A stretch of 64,000 bases of DNA from a virus, in IMG/VR virus record IMGVR_UViG_3300031965_000002, positions 2,082 through 66,081 of that record. One strand, 5' to 3'. The translations under genes were made by a program, and so were the position numbers. Shown piece after piece: positions 3,129 through 60,779 of this stretch. How positions within the stretch are numbered: the stretch's first letter is position 1; each line of letters opens with the position of its first letter. The notes under the pieces are model-generated. The model searched no databases, was not told where the DNA came from, and was given only the letters and a program-made list of their open reading frames with translations.

Positions 3129-3425
3129 ATGCAAGTCAAGCAAGCCGTAGATTTAACCGAGCAGTTCTTGCGCAAGGTCGTTGGACCTGGCGCATTACAA
3201 CGAATGACCCCTGAACCATGCCCCGAAGGAACCTTCATTGGTCAATACATTAGCAAGGTTCAATGCTACAATGTTGCTATCAAGCCCACGCACGATAGTC
3301 AAGGTACGCCCTTTATCGCCGTACATATTCAGACGGCAGACGATGCTAAGAAGGGAAGCGGAGACTGGCGCATCTATAGCGATGCAAGCGACTATGATAT
3401 GCCCCGCCAAGTTCTACACCCCTAA
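3129..3425 (+). CDS. Hypothetical protein, cassette after repeat 4
   Basis: GGAGAG RBS then ATG at 3129, within ORF 3075..3425; 40 nt after the repeat. Confidence 0.65.
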   Translation: MQVKQAVDLTEQFLRKVVGPGALQRMTPEPCPEGTFIGQYISKVQCYNVAIKPTHDSQGTPFIAVHIQTADDAKKGSGDWRIYSDASDYDMPRQVLHP

Positions 3426-32760: not shown

Positions 32761-32878
32761 AAACTCAATTTATTATTAAATAAGTTACGATTTATATGGA
32801 GCGGGCGAGAAAACCTCCATGCTTGTCGTGGAGGATGAATCGCCATATGAGAGAATAAGCAAATATTTTCCAATTAAC

Positions 32879-32907
32879 TAAAGGATTTACAGAAGTAATG
32901 TCGAAAC
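32879..32907 (+). promoter_or_regulatory. Putative sigma28-like promoter inside IS element 1
   Basis: TAAAGG-N15-GTCGAAAC, 10 nt before the tnpB ATG. Confidence 0.55.
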
Positions 32908-32916
32908 TATAAATAT

Positions 32917-34080
32917 ATGATACAAAAAGGTTTCAAATATCGAATCTACCCAAACCAAGAACAAGAGCAAAAAATTGCCCAACACCTTGGTTGCGTTAGA
33001 TATATCTATAACAAAGCCCTTGAAACTAAAGTCAAACATTATGAGAAAACAGGCAAAAGTCTTTCCTGCTTTGAACTTACTACAGGTTTGCTTAAGCAGG
33101 AAAAAGCAGAACATGAGTGGTTAAAAGGACCATATTCCCAATGTCTACAAATGAGCCTAAGAAATCTTGATAATGCTTTTACTAGATTCTTTAAGCAAAA
33201 GAAAGGCTTCCCTAAGTTCAAAGCTAAACATGACTCAAAACAGTCGTGCCAGTTCCCACAACATGTGAAGATAGACTTTGAAAACAGCAAAATATGCCTT
33301 CCTAAAATCGGTTGGATAAAAACAAAGCTCTCTAGACAATTCAATGGAAAAGTAAAAACTACTACATTATCAAGAACGTCAACAGGTAAATATTTTGTAT
33401 CTATTCTCGTTGAAACAAATGAAGAAATAAAACTCAAGAAACCTGTTCGAAAAGAAACATCAGTAGGAATTGATTTAGGAATCAAATCTTACATTGTTAC
33501 CTCAGACGGCGAAGAAATTCAGTACCCGAAGTTTCTCAGACAATCTATTGATAGATTAAAAATACTGCAAAGCAGAGCTTCGAAACACCCAAAAGGTGGG
33601 GTGAGGCGTCGTAGAGCAATACGTAAAGTTGCTAGACTTCATGAGAAGATAAGAAACCAAAGGCATGACTGGTTGCATAAATTGTCAACTAAACTCATCA
33701 GCGATAACCAAACTGTATGTTTAGAAGATTTAAATGTATCAAGCATGCTGAAGAACCATTGTCTTGCTCAGAGCATTTCTGATTGTTCTTGGGGAACCTT
33801 TGTAGAATTCCTCCAGTACAAGGCAGAATGGTATGGAGTCAACATCCTTAAGATTGGAAGGTTTGAACCTTCTTCTAAAATGTGTTCTTGTTGTGGTTGT
33901 ATGAAGAAAGATTTGAATCTTTCTGATAGGAAATGGTATTGCGAAGAATGCGGAGTTCTTCACGATAGAGATGTGAATGCAGCTTTGAATATCAAGAAGT
34001 TTGCATTGTTAAAACAGAATTCAGGGTCGGGACGACCCGGTGAGCTACAGAGTGCTAATACGTCAACGTTGGTTGAGTAA
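32917..34080 (+). CDS. tnpB: TnpB RNA-guided endonuclease
   Basis: KGFKYRIYPN N-terminal HTH, RuvC motifs VGIDLG / CLEDL / DRDVNAA, zinc finger CSCC...CEEC. Confidence 0.95.
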   Translation: MIQKGFKYRIYPNQEQEQKIAQHLGCVRYIYNKALETKVKHYEKTGKSLSCFELTTGLLKQEKAEHEWLKGPYSQCLQMSLRNLDNAFTRFFKQKKGFPKFKAKHDSKQSCQFPQHVKIDFENSKICLPKIGWIKTKLSRQFNGKVKTTTLSRTSTGKYFVSILVETNEEIKLKKPVRKETSVGIDLGIKSYIVTSDGEEIQYPKFLRQSIDRLKILQSRASKHPKGGVRRRRAIRKVARLHEKIRNQRHDWLHKLSTKLISDNQTVCLEDLNVSSMLKNHCLAQSISDCSWGTFVEFLQYKAEWYGVNILKIGRFEPSSKMCSCCGCMKKDLNLSDRKWYCEECGVLHDRDVNAALNIKKFALLKQNSGSGRPGELQSANTSTLVE

Positions 34081-34130
34081 ATATCTGTGGAATCCCCCAT
34101 GCTTGTCATGGGGGAGGTTCAATGCCATTA

Positions 34131-44532: not shown

Positions 44533-44560
44533 TTTTCGGCTTTCTGGGGTAGTTTCCTTT
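44533..44560 (-). promoter_or_regulatory. Putative sigma28-like promoter of the lysozyme gene
   Basis: On the minus strand: AAAGG-N15-GCCGAAAA, 8 nt before the ATG at 44524. Confidence 0.55.
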
Positions 44561-52765: not shown

Positions 52766-55700
52766 ATGACTATGTCTACTATTAAAGACGCGATACAGCT
52801 TACAAGAAAAGATACTATAGACTTTTTCGGTGGTGATGAACTCGCCACCGATGTTTTTCTTAAGAAGTATGCCATAACTCGCACTGACGGAACTCTTGAA
52901 GAATACTTGCCGCCTCAAATGTGGGAACGAATGGCACGTGCGGCTTCGTCCGTAGAGAAAGACCAGGACGTTTGGTATCGTAAATTTTATTCAGTGCTAG
53001 AAGGCTGGAAGGCTGTTCCTCAGGGCAGCATTATGTTTGCGCTTGGAAATCCATACCAGCGTTCAAGTTGTTCCAACTGCTTTGTGGCAGGAACCGAAGT
53101 TCTTACCAAGAATGGTCCTAAAGCGATTGAATCGGTCACTACAGATGATTATGTTCTTACTAAATCAGGTGTTTACCATAGGGTAGAGCAGCTTCATATT
53201 AGCGAAATCGAGGACAGAGGGCTTTTTTCTTTTAAAGCATATCGATCTCCCTGGACTTCGTGTACGGGTAATCATTCTTTCTGGTCAATAACTCAAGAGC
53301 AAATTAAGTGGGGAGAAGGGCCATCGTGGAATCCTGTGTCTCATTTGAGACCAGGAGATTATATAGCCATACCAAGGCAGTCTGATTTTTCCAAAAACAG
53401 AGAAACGATTGATTTACATATGGCTGCAAAGCAAGGCCTAAATTCTTATCAATTTGATTCTGTTAGTTATGATATTGTTGAGCAGGCAGGAAAATTTGGA
53501 TTAGTGGCAAACTTTTCCGGCAGAAGAAATGAAAAAGAGTATAAGTCATCAAAATCCCTAAACAAAGTCTCAAAAGGTTTTTATCTGGTTGAAGAATCAG
53601 CCTATATGCTTGGAGTCTGGTTTGGAGATGGCTGTGTTTTTGGTAGAACAAAAGAAGATCCTGCGCCTATGGGTATATCTTTTACCTTTGGGGCTCATGA
53701 AAAAGAAAACTCATACAAAATTAAAGATATCGCTGAAAGATGTTTTGGTCTTGGGGGTAAGATATTAGAAAATAAGAACGATAACACAATCCAGGTTATA
53801 TTTCACAGCAGAGCACTTGGGCTTTCTTTTGAGCATCTTTTTGGAAGAGGCTACGACGGTAAGCGGTTGCCAACTATTTTATACAAAATGCCTAATGAGA
53901 TCGTTTTTGCCTTTCTTCGGGGATTAATTGATTCAGACGGAACAATAACCAAAGATGGCGATATACGAATAGTTCTTAATAATAAGCCGCTTATTAAGCA
54001 GGTTTATCATTTGCTTAGGTCGCGTAGCTATCTGGTTGGTTATGCCGAAAGTGGCTCTTCTGCACGAATAGATTTACCTCGAAACGATGATATAATTGAC
54101 AGTCTCTCAAAGAAATATGCGGACGATAGGCTTCTTGTTGCCGCAAACAAAGAGTCAAGATCACTAAACTCTCTAACCATAGATGAGGCAGTATTTGTCC
54201 GCATAATGGACAAGAAAAAACTCCAACACGAACAAGGAGAAAAAGTATACAACATAGGAGTTGATTCAGATCATTCATATACTGTCCACGGAATGGTGGC
54301 AAAGAATTGCTTTGTAGTGCCTATCCATGAAGACTCGTTGGAGGGCATTTTTAATGCAGCCAAAGAAATGGCGCAGACTTATGCTTATCGCGGTGGCGTA
54401 GGCATAGATATATCACCGTTACGACCGGATGGCGCTGTCGTTTCTAATGCGGCAAGAACGTCAACGGGCGCATGGTCGTTCATGGATTTATATAGCTATA
54501 TAACTAGGCACATTGGTCAGCATGGCCGTCGTGGAGCCTTGATGCTTACCATTAGTGATAGTCATCCTGATTTACTTAAGTTTATAACATCAAAGACAGA
54601 CCTAACAAAGGTCACAGGCGCTAATATTTCTGTCAAGATTAGCAATGCTTTCATGGAGGCAATTGAAAAAGACTTGACATGGAAGATGGAGTTTTCTACC
54701 AGTCACCAAAAGGTTGCGCAGGAAATGTCTGCACGCGAGATTTGGCATACGCTTGTTGAATGCGCTACAAGCACGGCTGAGCCAGGTATTTTATTCTGGG
54801 ACCATATAATAGATGAGTCGCCTTCTGACTGCTATGCTGATGATGGCTTCCGCACAATTTGTACAAACCCCTCGTTTAGATGGGATACCAGGATTGTTAC
54901 AGACAGGGGAGTGATGCTTATTAAAGATATAGCTGAAAAAACCCCGGTATGTAGAGTAAGAAATATCCTTGGAGAGTGGCATGATGCTTTTGCTTTCAAA
55001 TCAGGAGAAAATAAAAGACTATATAAGATTTCGTTTAGCGGAGGAAGGGAAGTTTTCTGTACAGCAGAGCATCAATGGCCAGTTCTGAATACATCTGGCA
55101 ATCTTATAAATCTTCAAACTGGAAAGATAAAGAAAAAGAAGACAGAGACCCTTTCAAGAGGAGATAAGATATACCTACCTGTATTTGATAAGCCCATTGA
55201 CAATAACAACTGTATTTTTACTGAGGAAGACGGATTTGTTTTAGGGTGGTACCTGGGAGACGGATATAAGACCTATCATAAGAGGCATAAATCAGACCAG
55301 TTTGGTTTTGTGTTTGGGCCAGAAGATCAAGAATACAAGATATCTGAGACTGTGTTGTCATATACTAATAGGCATTCAAATTCAATTTGCAACCTAACAC
55401 CGGATCATGGTACCTCAACACAAGCTTATTGTACAAGAGACAAGAAGGTTGTAGGTAAACTAAAGGCAATTGGTTGTGATGATAAAGAAAATGGAATTCC
55501 AGCATCGGTATGGGGCGGAAATGATAGGTTTATTAAAGGATTTTTAGATGGACTATTTAGCGCAGATGGATATGTTTATGTAAAGCCAAATCTTGCTAAT
55601 TGCCAAGTCAAACTTGTTACTAAACATGATAAACTGGCAGATGATCTGGTAAGTCTCCTTATGTTTTATGGGATAAGAGCCACGGTTACCAGAAGCGACA

Positions 55701-57478
55701 AGCCGTCTACTTTTCCAAAAGTTAAATATAATAATTCAGAAAGACTATATCATGATGTGTGTATTTCTGGATATAATGCCTTTTTGTTTGCCAAGACATT
55801 TTCTTTAACGAACCTGTCCAAGCAAAAACGATTGGATGAGATTATTCAATCGGACACAAGTTCATATAAAAAAGAAAGAGTATATCAGGTTGTTACTTCT
55901 GTTGAATCTACAGAGATATTTGAAGACGTGTACGATATCTCTGTAGACGATGAAACACATACATTCCAAATGGAACAAGGTATATCAGGTAACTGTTCCG
56001 AAATCCCACTTCCTGCCTATGATGCCTGTACGCTTCTCTCGATGAACATGACTCGTTATACGCGAAATGATTTCTCCAGAGATGCTTATTTTGATTTTGA
56101 GGCGTTTGCTGAGGACGTAGAGGTTGCTTTGCGTTTCTTGGACAATGTGAAGGAAATTGACCTTGATTTGATGCCTCTTGAGCAGCAGAGAGAGGTCGCG
56201 GCCAAGGGGCGTCGTGTTGGTATGGGAACCAACGGTCTTGGCGATACGCTTGCTAACCTCGGTATCAAGTATGACAGCGACCGTGCGGTTGAGTGGGTAG
56301 ATGAGTTCTACGAGTTTTTTGCGAAGACTGTATATAAGGCATCCGCTGAGCTTGCGAAGGAAAAGGGAGCATTCCCTGTTTTTGATGCAGAGAAAGAGAA
56401 AGACAACCCATTCCTTAAGCGGATTGGTTTTGCCGGTGTTCCTCGTCGCAACATCGCTGCTTTGACTTGTGCGCCTACGGGCTCTCTTTCATGCCTTTGC
56501 CAAACCTCATCCGGCGTTGAGCCTGTCTTCCGTAATTTCTATAGGCGTCGTCGTAAGATTACTCATAACGAAGCTACGGATATACCGCAGGACCATTTGC
56601 ACAAGGATGGTATTGGCGATATTTGGCAAGAATATGATGTTGCTCATCGCAATGTTGAACGATTCTTGGATCGCCGTCACATTTCGCTGAAGAACAAGAA
56701 GGCTGAAGATATTAAGCTCCCCAGCTATTTTGTGGAATCGGATACAATTGATTGGACGATGCGAGTTAAGATTCAGGCTGCGATGCAAAAATGGATTGAC
56801 CACGCTATTTCATCAACGTGCAACCTTCCGAAGGGAACGACTGTTGAGACAGTCAAGAAGGTTTATGAAGAGGCGTTTAAGTCTGGATGTAAGGGCTTTA
56901 CTGTTTATGTAGATGGCTGTCGCGATGGTGTTCTTATTACGAAGGAAGATGCCAAGTCAACTTCGATATCCAAGACCGATGCTCCTAAGCGACCCAAGGA
57001 ACTGGATGCAGATGTTTACCATATTACAGTCAAGGGACAACAATATTTTATTATGGTCGGTCTTCTTGACGGAGAACCATATGAATGCTTTGCTGGCAAG
57101 AATGGTTTTATAGATAACAAAAAGAAACATTGTAAGATTAAAAAGGTCAAGAGAGGTTGCTATCAAGCTATTTTCGACGATGGCGAAGTCATTGAAAATA
57201 TCGCAGACTACATTGAAGATGACGAGGCGGCAATCACAAGACTTATTTCTCTTTCGCTTCGTCATGGAGCAGATATCAAACACTGCGTTGATTCGCTTGA
57301 GCGAGTTCCCGGAGATATGCATAATTTTGCAAGGTCGCTTTCTCGTGCTATCAAGAAATATATTCCTGATGGCACGGAAGTCACAGGTCGAACCTGCGAT
57401 ACTTGTAATGGAGATAATCTTATAAGAGAAGAGGGCTGCATCAGGTGCGCTGATTGTGGATGGGCTGGCTGCGGATAA
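52766..57478 (+). CDS. nrdJ: Class II (B12-dependent) ribonucleotide reductase with two inteins and a C-terminal TSCPD/zinc-ribbon domain
   Basis: After intein removal: SNCFV, RGGVGIDIS.LRP.G, GRRGALM, GANISV, TNPCSEIPL, RRVGMG, APTGSLS, DHAISSTCN; C-terminal CDTC...C..CG. Confidence 0.93.
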   Translation: MTMSTIKDAIQLTRKDTIDFFGGDELATDVFLKKYAITRTDGTLEEYLPPQMWERMARAASSVEKDQDVWYRKFYSVLEGWKAVPQGSIMFALGNPYQRSSCSNCFVAGTEVLTKNGPKAIESVTTDDYVLTKSGVYHRVEQLHISEIEDRGLFSFKAYRSPWTSCTGNHSFWSITQEQIKWGEGPSWNPVSHLRPGDYIAIPRQSDFSKNRETIDLHMAAKQGLNSYQFDSVSYDIVEQAGKFGLVANFSGRRNEKEYKSSKSLNKVSKGFYLVEESAYMLGVWFGDGCVFGRTKEDPAPMGISFTFGAHEKENSYKIKDIAERCFGLGGKILENKNDNTIQVIFHSRALGLSFEHLFGRGYDGKRLPTILYKMPNEIVFAFLRGLIDSDGTITKDGDIRIVLNNKPLIKQVYHLLRSRSYLVGYAESGSSARIDLPRNDDIIDSLSKKYADDRLLVAANKESRSLNSLTIDEAVFVRIMDKKKLQHEQGEKVYNIGVDSDHSYTVHGMVAKNCFVVPIHEDSLEGIFNAAKEMAQTYAYRGGVGIDISPLRPDGAVVSNAARTSTGAWSFMDLYSYITRHIGQHGRRGALMLTISDSHPDLLKFITSKTDLTKVTGANISVKISNAFMEAIEKDLTWKMEFSTSHQKVAQEMSAREIWHTLVECATSTAEPGILFWDHIIDESPSDCYADDGFRTICTNPSFRWDTRIVTDRGVMLIKDIAEKTPVCRVRNILGEWHDAFAFKSGENKRLYKISFSGGREVFCTAEHQWPVLNTSGNLINLQTGKIKKKKTETLSRGDKIYLPVFDKPIDNNNCIFTEEDGFVLGWYLGDGYKTYHKRHKSDQFGFVFGPEDQEYKISETVLSYTNRHSNSICNLTPDHGTSTQAYCTRDKKVVGKLKAIGCDDKENGIPASVWGGNDRFIKGFLDGLFSADGYVYVKPNLANCQVKLVTKHDKLADDLVSLLMFYGIRATVTRSDKPSTFPKVKYNNSERLYHDVCISGYNAFLFAKTFSLTNLSKQKRLDEIIQSDTSSYKKERVYQVVTSVESTEIFEDVYDISVDDETHTFQMEQGISGNCSEIPLPAYDACTLLSMNMTRYTRNDFSRDAYFDFEAFAEDVEVALRFLDNVKEIDLDLMPLEQQREVAAKGRRVGMGTNGLGDTLANLGIKYDSDRAVEWVDEFYEFFAKTVYKASAELAKEKGAFPVFDAEKEKDNPFLKRIGFAGVPRRNIAALTCAPTGSLSCLCQTSSGVEPVFRNFYRRRRKITHNEATDIPQDHLHKDGIGDIWQEYDVAHRNVERFLDRRHISLKNKKAEDIKLPSYFVESDTIDWTMRVKIQAAMQKWIDHAISSTCNLPKGTTVETVKKVYEEAFKSGCKGFTVYVDGCRDGVLITKEDAKSTSISKTDAPKRPKELDADVYHITVKGQQYFIMVGLLDGEPYECFAGKNGFIDNKKKHCKIKKVKRGCYQAIFDDGEVIENIADYIEDDEAAITRLISLSLRHGADIKHCVDSLERVPGDMHNFARSLSRAIKKYIPDGTEVTGRTCDTCNGDNLIREEGCIRCADCGWAGCG
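53078..54307 (+). mobile_element. Intein 1 (410 aa) with LAGLIDADG endonuclease
   Basis: Starts CFVAGTEV, ends HSYTVHGMVAKN, followed by Cys; internal MLGVWFGDG and FLRGLIDSDG. Confidence 0.9.
54872..55993 (+). mobile_element. Intein 2 (374 aa) with LAGLIDADG endonuclease
   Basis: Inserted in TNP|CSE; starts SFRWDTRIVT, ends HTFQMEQGISGN; internal LGWYLGDG and FLDGLFSADG. Confidence 0.9.
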
Positions 57479-58028: not shown

Positions 58029-58471
58029 ATGTAGGTAAGTTTGTTTATTTTTACTTCATCTAAGGTTCCAATATGGGTATAGTAACTTATTGTAATGGAT
58101 ATAGCAGTGGCTCTCATAAAAAAGTCGAGGTCACTTGTGATTTTCAGGCTTCTTGTAAATGTAAGAAAAAATGGAGTGTCGAATACAGGCTAGCTCATAG
58201 AACAATGAATAATAATGGCGGCAAAATAATATGCCTATTTTGCTCTAGAAGTATAAAAAATTCAGGTCGAAACAATCCTAATTGTATATATTCTATGATA
58301 GATGATAATATGTTTGAATCAGTATTGTCTGAAGAAAAAGCATATTTATTAGGATGGATAGCAAGTGATGGGACCATAACAGATAATTGGATATCTATAG
58401 AACGAAGCAGAGAACCTCTACCCTCGTGGTAGAGGGTGAACGCGACCAATAGTAAAATATTTCAATCTTAC

Positions 58472-58500
58472 TAAAGGATTATCTACAGAAATGCCGAAGA
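58472..58500 (+). promoter_or_regulatory. Putative sigma28-like promoter inside IS element 2
   Basis: TAAAGG-N15-GCCGAAGA, 10 nt before the tnpB ATG; same geometry as in element 1. Confidence 0.55.
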
Positions 58501-58510
58501 TATATGTAGA

Positions 58511-59674
58511 ATGACACTCAAAGCTTTCAAATACAGATTGTACCCGACACCAAACCAAAAGCAACTTCTGGCTCAACACTTCGGACATTGTAGATATGTC
58601 TATAACTGGGGGCTAAATCAAAAACTACAACAATACCAAAAAAAAGGCAAATCAGACTCTTGCATCACGCTCATCAATAAAGTAACAGAACTCAAGAAAC
58701 AATCAGATACGATTTGGCTTAAGGATGTCAACGCTCAAGCTCTACAGATGAGCCTGAGAAATCTTGACAATGCTTTCACCAGGTTTTTCAGAGAAAAGAA
58801 AGGCTTTCCTAAATTTAAGAAACGAAACAATAGACAGTCTTTCCAGTGTCCTCAAGACTGTTCAATTAATTTTGATAACGAACTTCTTGCTATACCTAAG
58901 TTCAAAGGTAAAAACCAAATCAAAATCAGAGTCAGCAGAAGGTTCGAAGGCAAAATCAAGACTGTCACTATCAGTAAAAATCCATCAGGCAAATACTTTG
59001 CTTCTATACTTGTTGAAGTTCCAGAAGAAGTTCCTCAGAAACCTGTTGTTAGAGAAGATGCAACTATTGGTATTGACTTAGGATTAAAAGACTTTGCTAC
59101 TATTTCAACAGGAGAGAAGATTGCTAACCCAAAACACCTCAAGAAGACCTTGAGCAAAGTAAAGTATCAGCACTACAAGTTGTCAAAAACGACAAAAGGA
59201 AGTAAGAGAAGAGAGAAAGCAAGGCGTAATCTTGCTAAAACACATGAAAAGATAAAGAACCAGCGAGATGATTTTTTGCATAAACTTTCGCACAGATTAA
59301 CCCATGACAGCCAAGTGGATACAATTTGTATGGAAGACCTGAATGTTCAGGGTATGCTAAAGAATAATAAGTTATCTCAATCCATTTCTGATGTTTCGTG
59401 GTCAAGATTTGTTGAGTTTCTTAAGTACAAATGCGATTGGTATGGCAAGAACTTGTTCCAGATAGGCAGGTTTGAACCGAGTTCAAAGATGTGTACTTGT
59501 GGTAAACTCAATAATGACTTGAAGTTGAGCGATAGAGAATGGGTTTGTCAGAGTTGCGAAGCAACTCATGACAGGGATGTTTTGGCTGCTCAGAACATTA
59601 AGAGATTTGGGTTGATTAGATTAAATAGTGTACCGTGGGAAGCGCGGGAATCAACGCTCGTGGAGACTGCTTAA
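58511..59674 (+). CDS. tnpB: TnpB RNA-guided endonuclease
   Basis: KAFKYRLYPT, RuvC motifs IGIDLG / CMEDL / DRDVLAA, zinc finger CTC...CQSC. Confidence 0.95.
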   Translation: MTLKAFKYRLYPTPNQKQLLAQHFGHCRYVYNWGLNQKLQQYQKKGKSDSCITLINKVTELKKQSDTIWLKDVNAQALQMSLRNLDNAFTRFFREKKGFPKFKKRNNRQSFQCPQDCSINFDNELLAIPKFKGKNQIKIRVSRRFEGKIKTVTISKNPSGKYFASILVEVPEEVPQKPVVREDATIGIDLGLKDFATISTGEKIANPKHLKKTLSKVKYQHYKLSKTTKGSKRREKARRNLAKTHEKIKNQRDDFLHKLSHRLTHDSQVDTICMEDLNVQGMLKNNKLSQSISDVSWSRFVEFLKYKCDWYGKNLFQIGRFEPSSKMCTCGKLNNDLKLSDREWVCQSCEATHDRDVLAAQNIKRFGLIRLNSVPWEARESTLVETA

Positions 59675-60347
59675 GGTTCATGTTTGCTTTGCAAACAGGT
59701 GAAGCGTCAGCGAAACGAGAATCCCCTACGCTCGTCGTAGGGGTACTTCAAAGAGATTCACAATAAAGATTTGGTCATACTGGGACGCCTAAAAAGCGTT
59801 GTATCGAATGACTTAGTGATTAGACACAGAAAGAATAGGCCATTTAGTATATTGAAAATTAGTTCTAAACAAATATCAAAAGATGTTTGTTCGTTATTTC
59901 ATATAGAACCAGGAGCTAAAGACAGAAAAATATGCTTTCCAGATTTGTCTAGCAAAAAACTACAACTAGCTTTTGTTCGAGGTCTTTTTGATGGAGATGG
60001 AAGCGTTAGTAATCCTTATGGAAGAAAAGAATACAAATATCCAGCATGCTCAATAGCAAGCTATTCGGACGATGTAAAAAAGGCCATTAGAGAGCTGTTT
60101 GATAGCGTAAATGTAACTTCCTCTAAAATAGAGTGGAGTGGAGATGAAGCGATGAAAGTTATGAGCATGATTTATGATGATGCACTATTGTATTTACCTA
60201 GAAAGCGAGAGAGGTTTGAGGTTTGGAAGTGTATAAGATCATTTCGTAAATCCTCTCCCTTCTAAAGGCTACAGGGGCGAAGTTCTTGTAAGATTTAAAG
60301 TTGTACCATCAAAAGGAGATGGGGACTCGGCTCAACAGGAGGCATAA

Positions 60348-60779
60348 ATGAAATACCTATTATCTTCTAGCTACATGCGCAAAGTCGCTGGCGATGCCAA
60401 GACTTATGAGCTAAACGGAAAGCTCAAACAGCAAGATGACGGATATGTATATGTTGATATACTCGATAGCATTATGCAACCGTTTGTTAGTTTGATAGAT
60501 GAAGATGTTGAGAAACCGCCCTCAGATTTGGGCGCTCACATCACGGTTATTTCAGCAGAAGAATGTCCTAGCGAAGAAATATTGGAACTAGGAGAAGATA
60601 TCCCTTTTGTGTTGAAAGGGTTAGAGAAAGTCAATCCCGATGGCTGGGATGAGATGAAGAATGTTTGGTTTCTTAGCCTTGATTCGCCAAGGCTAGAAGA
60701 AATCAGGAAGAACTATGGCTTATCAGCTAAACATAAAGGGCACAACTTTCATATTACAGTTGCAGTTGAGCCTAAATGA
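60348..60779 (+). CDS. 2H phosphoesterase
   Basis: Two HxT motifs, GAHITVIS and NFHITVA, about 80 aa apart; AGGAGG RBS. Confidence 0.8.
   Translation: MKYLLSSSYMRKVAGDAKTYELNGKLKQQDDGYVYVDILDSIMQPFVSLIDEDVEKPPSDLGAHITVISAEECPSEEILELGEDIPFVLKGLEKVNPDGWDEMKNVWFLSLDSPRLEEIRKNYGLSAKHKGHNFHITVAVEPK

Follow-up and report, generated by a model that had tools for sequence, protein, structure and literature searches.

A transposase-less IS200/IS605 element within a LAGLIDADG endonuclease gene beside the dUTPase gene of a giant soil phage

The dUTPase locus and its interrupted endonuclease gene

The window analysed here, a DNA stretch of 64,000 nucleotides, lies within a 104-kb linear virus record (21% complete) from soil metagenomes. 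Its phage is a giant soil phage, or megaphage, of roughly 500 kb that encodes a sigma factor, and it shares the gene order RNR, dUTPase and a gene of 592 aa with a complete 488-kb relative. The RNR gene (52766-57478) contains two LAGLIDADG inteins that are not present in the RNR of this relative (786 aa), and the first of them has weak similarity to the N-terminal region of the endonuclease described below. Downstream of RNR are an intact dUTPase gene, a Zn-finger/LAGLIDADG gene split by an insertion sequence (element 2) and a decayed second copy of the dUTPase 3′ half (Table 1). The following 2H phosphoesterase gene (60348-60779) is also optional, as it is found after dUTPase in one relative and is missing in others.

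Table 1. Features of the dUTPase locus and of element 1, in window coordinates
Feature	Position	Strand	Remarks
Element 1	32796-34122	+	AAAA guide, TTTAT flank; tnpB 32917-34080
dUTPase gene, intact, 152 aa	57570-58028	+	Pfam dUTPase, E 1.5e-23; 3′ half duplicated downstream
LAGLIDADG gene, 5′ part	58073-58398	+	Four conserved Cys and first LAGLIDADG motif
Insertion motif TCTAT	58394-58398	+	Abuts left end of element 2; in 7/7 other AGAA-guide left ends
Element 2, transposase-less IS200/IS605 (IS1341-type), 1,353 bp	58399-59751	+	Placed by its ends and a full-length copy elsewhere
Left-end DNA guide and hairpin	58411-58435	+	AGAA (58411-58414), perfect 8-bp hairpin (58415-58435)
Promoter-like motif AAAG..N15-16..GYCGAA, upstream of tnpB	58473-58498	+	Putative; same place in element 1, L100 and L101
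tnpB, 387 aa	58511-59674	+	Pfam PF12323, PF01385, PF07282
Predicted omega-RNA scaffold	59590-59751	+	5′ limit approximate; includes right-end features
Predicted RNA guide	59752-59771	+	Right flank in the endonuclease gene; position after TTCAA
LAGLIDADG gene, 3′ part	59752-60265	+	Second motif intact; stop 60263-60265; Pfam LAGLIDADG_3, E 6.5e-7
Displaced original dUTPase 3′ half, decayed	60264-60347	+	Motif III to ‘VVPS’, ~117-nt internal deletion, frameshifted motif V tail

With element 2 in place, the reading frame of the 5′ part of this gene runs into the element and closes after 119 aa with a stop at 58432. In silico deletion of 58399-59751 yields a single Zn-finger/LAGLIDADG ORF of 279 aa, from 58073 to 60265, exactly as the initial annotation had proposed and with the same junction. 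Frame restoration alone is weak proof, because about one in three deletions in this neighbourhood would do the same, and because the AGA common to both ends, a microhomology of 3 nt, makes four registers of the junction identical. The boundary is nevertheless fixed by three independent lines of evidence: (i) the junction spacing, 18 residues across it, is exactly the same in 94 of 120 homologues; (ii) P0122, an uninterrupted 279-aa orthologue of the kind that the annotation suggested looking for, can be aligned over its whole length (47% identity) without a gap at this point; and (iii) the right end carries a GAAT guide (59719-59722), a perfect 8-bp hairpin (59723-59743) and a terminal TTCAA (59747-59751). 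The left guide, hairpin and motif likewise fit a start at 58399, in agreement with the earlier argument from the AGAA guide and the junction.

The 3′ part of the gene has 46% identity to residues 113-279 of P0122, whose gene also lies directly 3′ of a dUTPase gene. Of 40 columns conserved in the family, the rejoined protein has retained 39, which indicates that the LAGLIDADG gene was intact when element 2 inserted; element 2 truncated it at codon 109, and the proposal that one selfish nuclease broke another holds in this sense. Both catalytic residues, D99 and D190, are invariant in the family, and the model of P0122 (pLDDT 93) has a two-domain LAGLIDADG nuclease fold that matches bI3, I-Tsp061I and I-AniI in fold comparison. 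With two motifs, acidic catalytic residues and, as modelled on this orthologue, the two-domain fold, the protein is assigned to the LAGLIDADG homing endonucleases, and it was very probably a true homing endonuclease, because its gene is located in a presence/absence cassette in dUTPase. Its other homologues (P0002-P0121) form a large Zn-finger/LAGLIDADG family, most of which carry a C-terminal dUTPase fusion (410-450 aa), and some of which have other tails or are free-standing. A word search for relatives of the C-terminal half recovered only the query itself, and a literature search on the Zn-finger/LAGLIDADG-dUTPase fusion family found nothing relevant.

The displaced dUTPase piece is out of frame and lies directly 3′ of the endonuclease stop, and its own stop abuts the 2H gene. 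Its alignment score is 91, compared with 41 ± 5 (maximum 56) for shuffled sequences. At the locus of P0122 (L081) the corresponding remnant is full length, with a stop and a frameshift. In L081 the conserved Gly of motif III is kept in the stranded remnant (1520-1767) but is Asn in the dUTPase in use (137-616); this could possibly be a recoding to escape the endonuclease. One cassette-free relative has an 83% identical dUTPase gene followed by the 2H gene after 3 nt, and in other cassette-free relatives dUTPase is followed directly by the 592-aa gene. The 488-kb relative had no match to the endonuclease or TnpB of the window. The LAGLIDADG cassette is optional at a single site with empty alleles in relatives, and the order of intact gene, endonuclease ORF and stranded native 3′ part, seen at both the window and L081, corresponds to the mORF-type layout. 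The simplest reading is that the endonuclease belongs to a homing cassette within the dUTPase gene, inserted at motif III together with a replacement 3′ half. The dUTPase gene in use would then be a hybrid of a native 5′ part, extending to about motif III (~57827, an approximate left crossover), and a cassette-borne 3′ half. When compared with the cassette-free locus L185, the remnant and the in-use 3′ part have 39/51 and 37/51 identical nucleotides, respectively; their global alignment scores, obtained against different targets, are 91 and 79. The endonuclease would presumably cleave empty dUTPase alleles. For the family, homing is suggested by the two duplicated loci only, most relatives being dUTPase-fused or at other loci, and our search of the literature on dUTPase homing found no phage case of this kind.

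Element 2, its insertion motif and TnpB specificity

Element 2 contains tnpB as its only gene, with no tnpA inside. Its TnpB features HTH, OrfB and TNB domains, has intact RuvC residues (D189/E275/D356) and zinc-finger cysteines, and matches ISDra2 TnpB at E 2e-69. The dN/dS ratio of 0.04-0.06, estimated with dS near saturation, points to an intact protein under purifying selection. An element at another site (L100, 990-2352) has 80% DNA identity to element 2 over the full length, and two relatives encode 84-86% identical TnpBs at unrelated sites, one of them inside another phage-like gene. The closest cellular TnpBs were only ~50-55% identical and pointed to no host. In L100 and L101 the predicted omega-RNA scaffold region shows conservation as far as the end of the element and not past it; its fold z-score of -1.73 is weak taken alone. 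No TnpA was found in the contig, which belongs to a record only 21% complete so that tnpA may lie outside, or in five complete large phages; mobility would therefore need a transposase in trans, as is required by most such elements (10.1101/2023.03.14.532601). The TnpB domains with the RuvC D-E-D triad, the guide-bearing hairpins, a fixed motif with no target duplication and the missing tnpA together place element 2 among the tnpB-only IS200/IS605 elements, and its insertion, taken alone, is ordinary for a regular member of that family.

The promoter-like motif precedes tnpB in both elements of the window (58473-58498 and 32880-32905) and in L100 and L101, and was not found in six other left ends. 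A further copy at 44560 (minus strand) has a near-identical counterpart in the 488-kb relative. In its loose form the motif was not clearly enriched genome-wide (13 occurrences vs 3-15 in shuffles). It may mark a phage-adapted IS lineage.

To define the insertion motif, AGAA-guide left ends were searched without specifying the flank, and a hairpin was then required. All seven of those with a real hairpin at other loci had TCTAT ending 12-14 nt before the guide, and none of three pattern matches lacking a hairpin did; TCTAT is expected by chance at ~0.6% per locus, although some of the seven are related. The other pairs of guide and motif were AAAA with TTTAT, AAAT with TTTAA and AAAC with TTTAG, a covariation also described for ISGst elements (10.1101/2023.03.14.532601). 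By the guide rule AGAA predicts CTxT and GAAT predicts TCxA, both of which are seen at the ends of element 2. A left end was identified for only 23 of 137 TnpB loci, the strict hairpin finder missed most left ends, and the quick TnpB tree does not separate a single from a repeated origin of TCTAT. Because guide and motif covary across other loci, the insertion motifs of the two elements are taken to have diverged. The contrast of CTAT with TTAT in the initial annotation stands as a difference between the elements, but the conserved motif comprises five bases, TCTAT for element 2 and TTTAT for element 1. Our limited literature search found no description of a TCTAT motif with an AGAA guide, or of CTAT or TCTAT TAMs.

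Element 1 is intergenic, a few bases beyond the stop of a minus-strand gene. Its TnpB (TnpB1) is 52% identical to that of element 2 (TnpB2), and the two are not sisters in the quick tree. Even so, the elements share a 161-nt segment (72% identical) covering the left end, promoter motif and start. The pairing in the window is repeated in L100, a 3.3-kb contig with one AGAA/TCTAT element and, at 3282-3324, the beginning of one of the AAAA/TTTAT kind.

The flank motif is picked by the transposase through pairing with the DNA guide. The annotation had gone further and proposed diverged TAMs for the two TnpBs; their insertion motifs do differ, but different cleavage TAMs are not established by this. 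Divergence of the cleavage TAM is likely from the comparison of the proteins, and we lean somewhat towards a strict difference between TnpB2 and TnpB1. On the one hand, the TnpBs with a TCTAT flank have D, A or S at WED-loop residue 116 (6/6), whereas nine of the ten with T at -4 have H or N there, the sister pair L099/L005 included; this residue aligns with ISDra2 T123/N124 to within one position. The TAM of ISGst2 TnpB, moreover, precisely matches its flank motif (10.1101/2023.03.14.532601). On the other hand, both TnpBs could accept TYTAT, with the C/T difference belonging to the transposase DNA guide only. Such a shared TAM seems the less probable outcome, though a serious one: the position of ISDra2 K76 is Ala75 in TnpB2 and Ser in TnpB1, and K76A/S variants of ISDra2 accept the TYKAT class (PMC13639567). 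The closely related sisters L099 (TCTAT, Ala116) and L005 (TTTAT, His116), which differ in their flanks, are also compatible with it.

Nested insertions and the targets of the guide

We assign a probability of about 80% to two nested insertions in the dUTPase gene, first a LAGLIDADG homing cassette and then a non-autonomous IS605-family element inside it. As its anatomy suggests, a Zn-finger/LAGLIDADG endonuclease would have invaded dUTPase at catalytic motif III, bringing a recoded replacement 3′ half that left dUTPase whole, and the old 3′ half would have been pushed downstream to decay. Element 2 later inserted 3′ of TCTAT in endonuclease codon 109, with no target duplication. A TnpA acting in trans would read the AGAA left guide to select TCTAT, and TnpB with its omega-RNA would use the right flank as guide, following the rule established for ISDra2/ISGst (10.1101/2023.03.14.532601). 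TnpB would then cut copies in which TCTAT is joined to the right flank, namely the scar left by excision or, in a co-infecting sister phage, an intact allele that is nearly identical, and repair from the IS-bearing copy would keep element 2 in place. The site was probably struck by chance, and the phage probably tolerated the insertion since it can do without the endonuclease.

A guide that matches the intact insertion-site gene is the default for all TnpB elements and no sign of a chosen attack. The earlier claim that this guide targets intact endonuclease copies in co-infecting relatives found no support among the sequences searched: the exact junction of an empty allele had no match in viral contigs, the motif with the guide seed (≤2 mismatches in 12) did not occur in the genome or in any fetched locus, and the gene of P0122, the nearest intact orthologue, differs at the insertion site and should escape cutting. 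Among the contigs of three sequencing runs, those of X1 and X2 carry the inserted form, without base differences in the long pieces, and those of X3 span the right junction only. None of the three showed an excision joint, which is not evidence of absence, as contigs drop rare variants.

An active second-order drive, in which homing by TnpB would carry the IS-broken allele into co-infecting phages that have an intact endonuclease, is possible but, in our judgement, unlikely. Three alleles would then form a cycle, in which empty dUTPase alleles are converted by the endonuclease and endonuclease alleles by the IS, to which the empty ones are immune. In its favour, the three allele types all occur among relatives, the TnpB has stayed intact and conserved, the assemblies seen of this phage all have the insertion and none the empty form, and TnpB drive operates in multicopy plasmids (10.1101/2025.02.20.638934). 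Against this, the phages that provided these allele types have diverged too far for this guide to cut them, the assemblies may be one clonal population, and fixation is equally explained by drift. The most elaborate version, a two-tier megaphage drive with a non-transitive cycle, would set a dUTPase-targeting endonuclease with a spare gene tail against empty alleles, and a phage-adapted TnpB element with a phage promoter and a strict TCTAT TAM against the intact endonuclease, whereby the dead allele would actively be spread; we regard it as quite doubtful.

The prevalence of dUTPase fusions in the family raises another reading, that the LAGLIDADG gene had no homing role and either was left over from a LAGLIDADG-dUTPase fusion or was domesticated for DNA binding, with the downstream piece as the broken dUTPase of the fusion. 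This is improbable, since the remnant is of the resident phage dUTPase type rather than of the one found in most family fusions, begins with motif III at each of the two loci and stops precisely where the cassette-free gene does; P0122 shares the 279-aa length and the C-terminus, and both catalytic Asp residues are invariant. Removal of element 2 as a spliced intron, IStron-like, with the endonuclease still produced, is hardly credible: IStrons do exist in the IS605 family (10.1101/2023.11.20.567912) and removal restores the frame exactly, but this is expected of any scarless IS605 insertion, only 112 nt precede tnpB and 77 nt follow it, which leaves no room for a group I intron, the element ends in A rather than the terminal G of IStrons, and Rfam at either threshold gave no intron match, so that neither a group I core at the left end nor any intron that would rescue the gene was recognised.

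Comparison with known systems

The nest is real and well bounded and is made up of two selfish elements of known types, the cassette being a phage variant of a mitochondrial strategy. Elements 1 and 2 provide a natural pair for asking how a TnpB TAM keeps step with the insertion motif, with residue 116 as the candidate, and L005 and L099 provide one for a TAM switch (TTTAT vs TCTAT, His vs Ala at 116). A TnpB strict for TCTAT would widen the choice of target motifs for compact editors. The dUTPase cassette suggests that the ‘replacement gene end’ strategy has a counterpart in phages, in a large and little-described endonuclease family. Should alleles with an intact endonuclease indeed be invaded through TnpB homing, the spread of dead homing genes could be due to drive and not to drift.

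Element 2 resembles ISDra2 (TnpB structures PDB 8H1J, 8BF8, 8EXA) and ISGst2 of G. stearothermophilus (TAM TTTAT; 10.1101/2023.03.14.532601) in its sub-terminal hairpins with 4-nt guides, TTCAA-type right end, lack of target duplication, tnpB alone, intact RuvC, right-flank guide and guide-motif covariation. It differs from them in having TCTAT with an AGAA guide, in its location in a megaphage within the gene of another selfish nuclease, and in its phage-like promoter motif. The cassette is like the mORF hybrids of fungal mitochondria (Allomyces macrogynus atp6; Glomus atp6, atp9, cox2 and nad3; PMC3630166), in which an endonuclease ORF comes with a replacement C-terminal half and the native half is stranded downstream, but it involves a bacteriophage dUTPase and an intein-like LAGLIDADG_3 domain with an N-terminal Zn finger, and most members of its family are fused to dUTPase. 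As in the IS605 TnpB drive of multicopy plasmids, a new insertion would redirect the guide to those copies of its replicon that lack the IS; that drive was shown in the laboratory (10.1101/2025.02.20.638934), whereas here it would act among co-infecting phages and its target is itself a homing gene. Like the IStrons CdiIStron and CboIStron (10.1101/2023.11.20.567912), element 2 is a TnpB element in a reading frame whose removal restores the gene; unlike them, it has no group I intron, and the gene that it interrupts is truncated.
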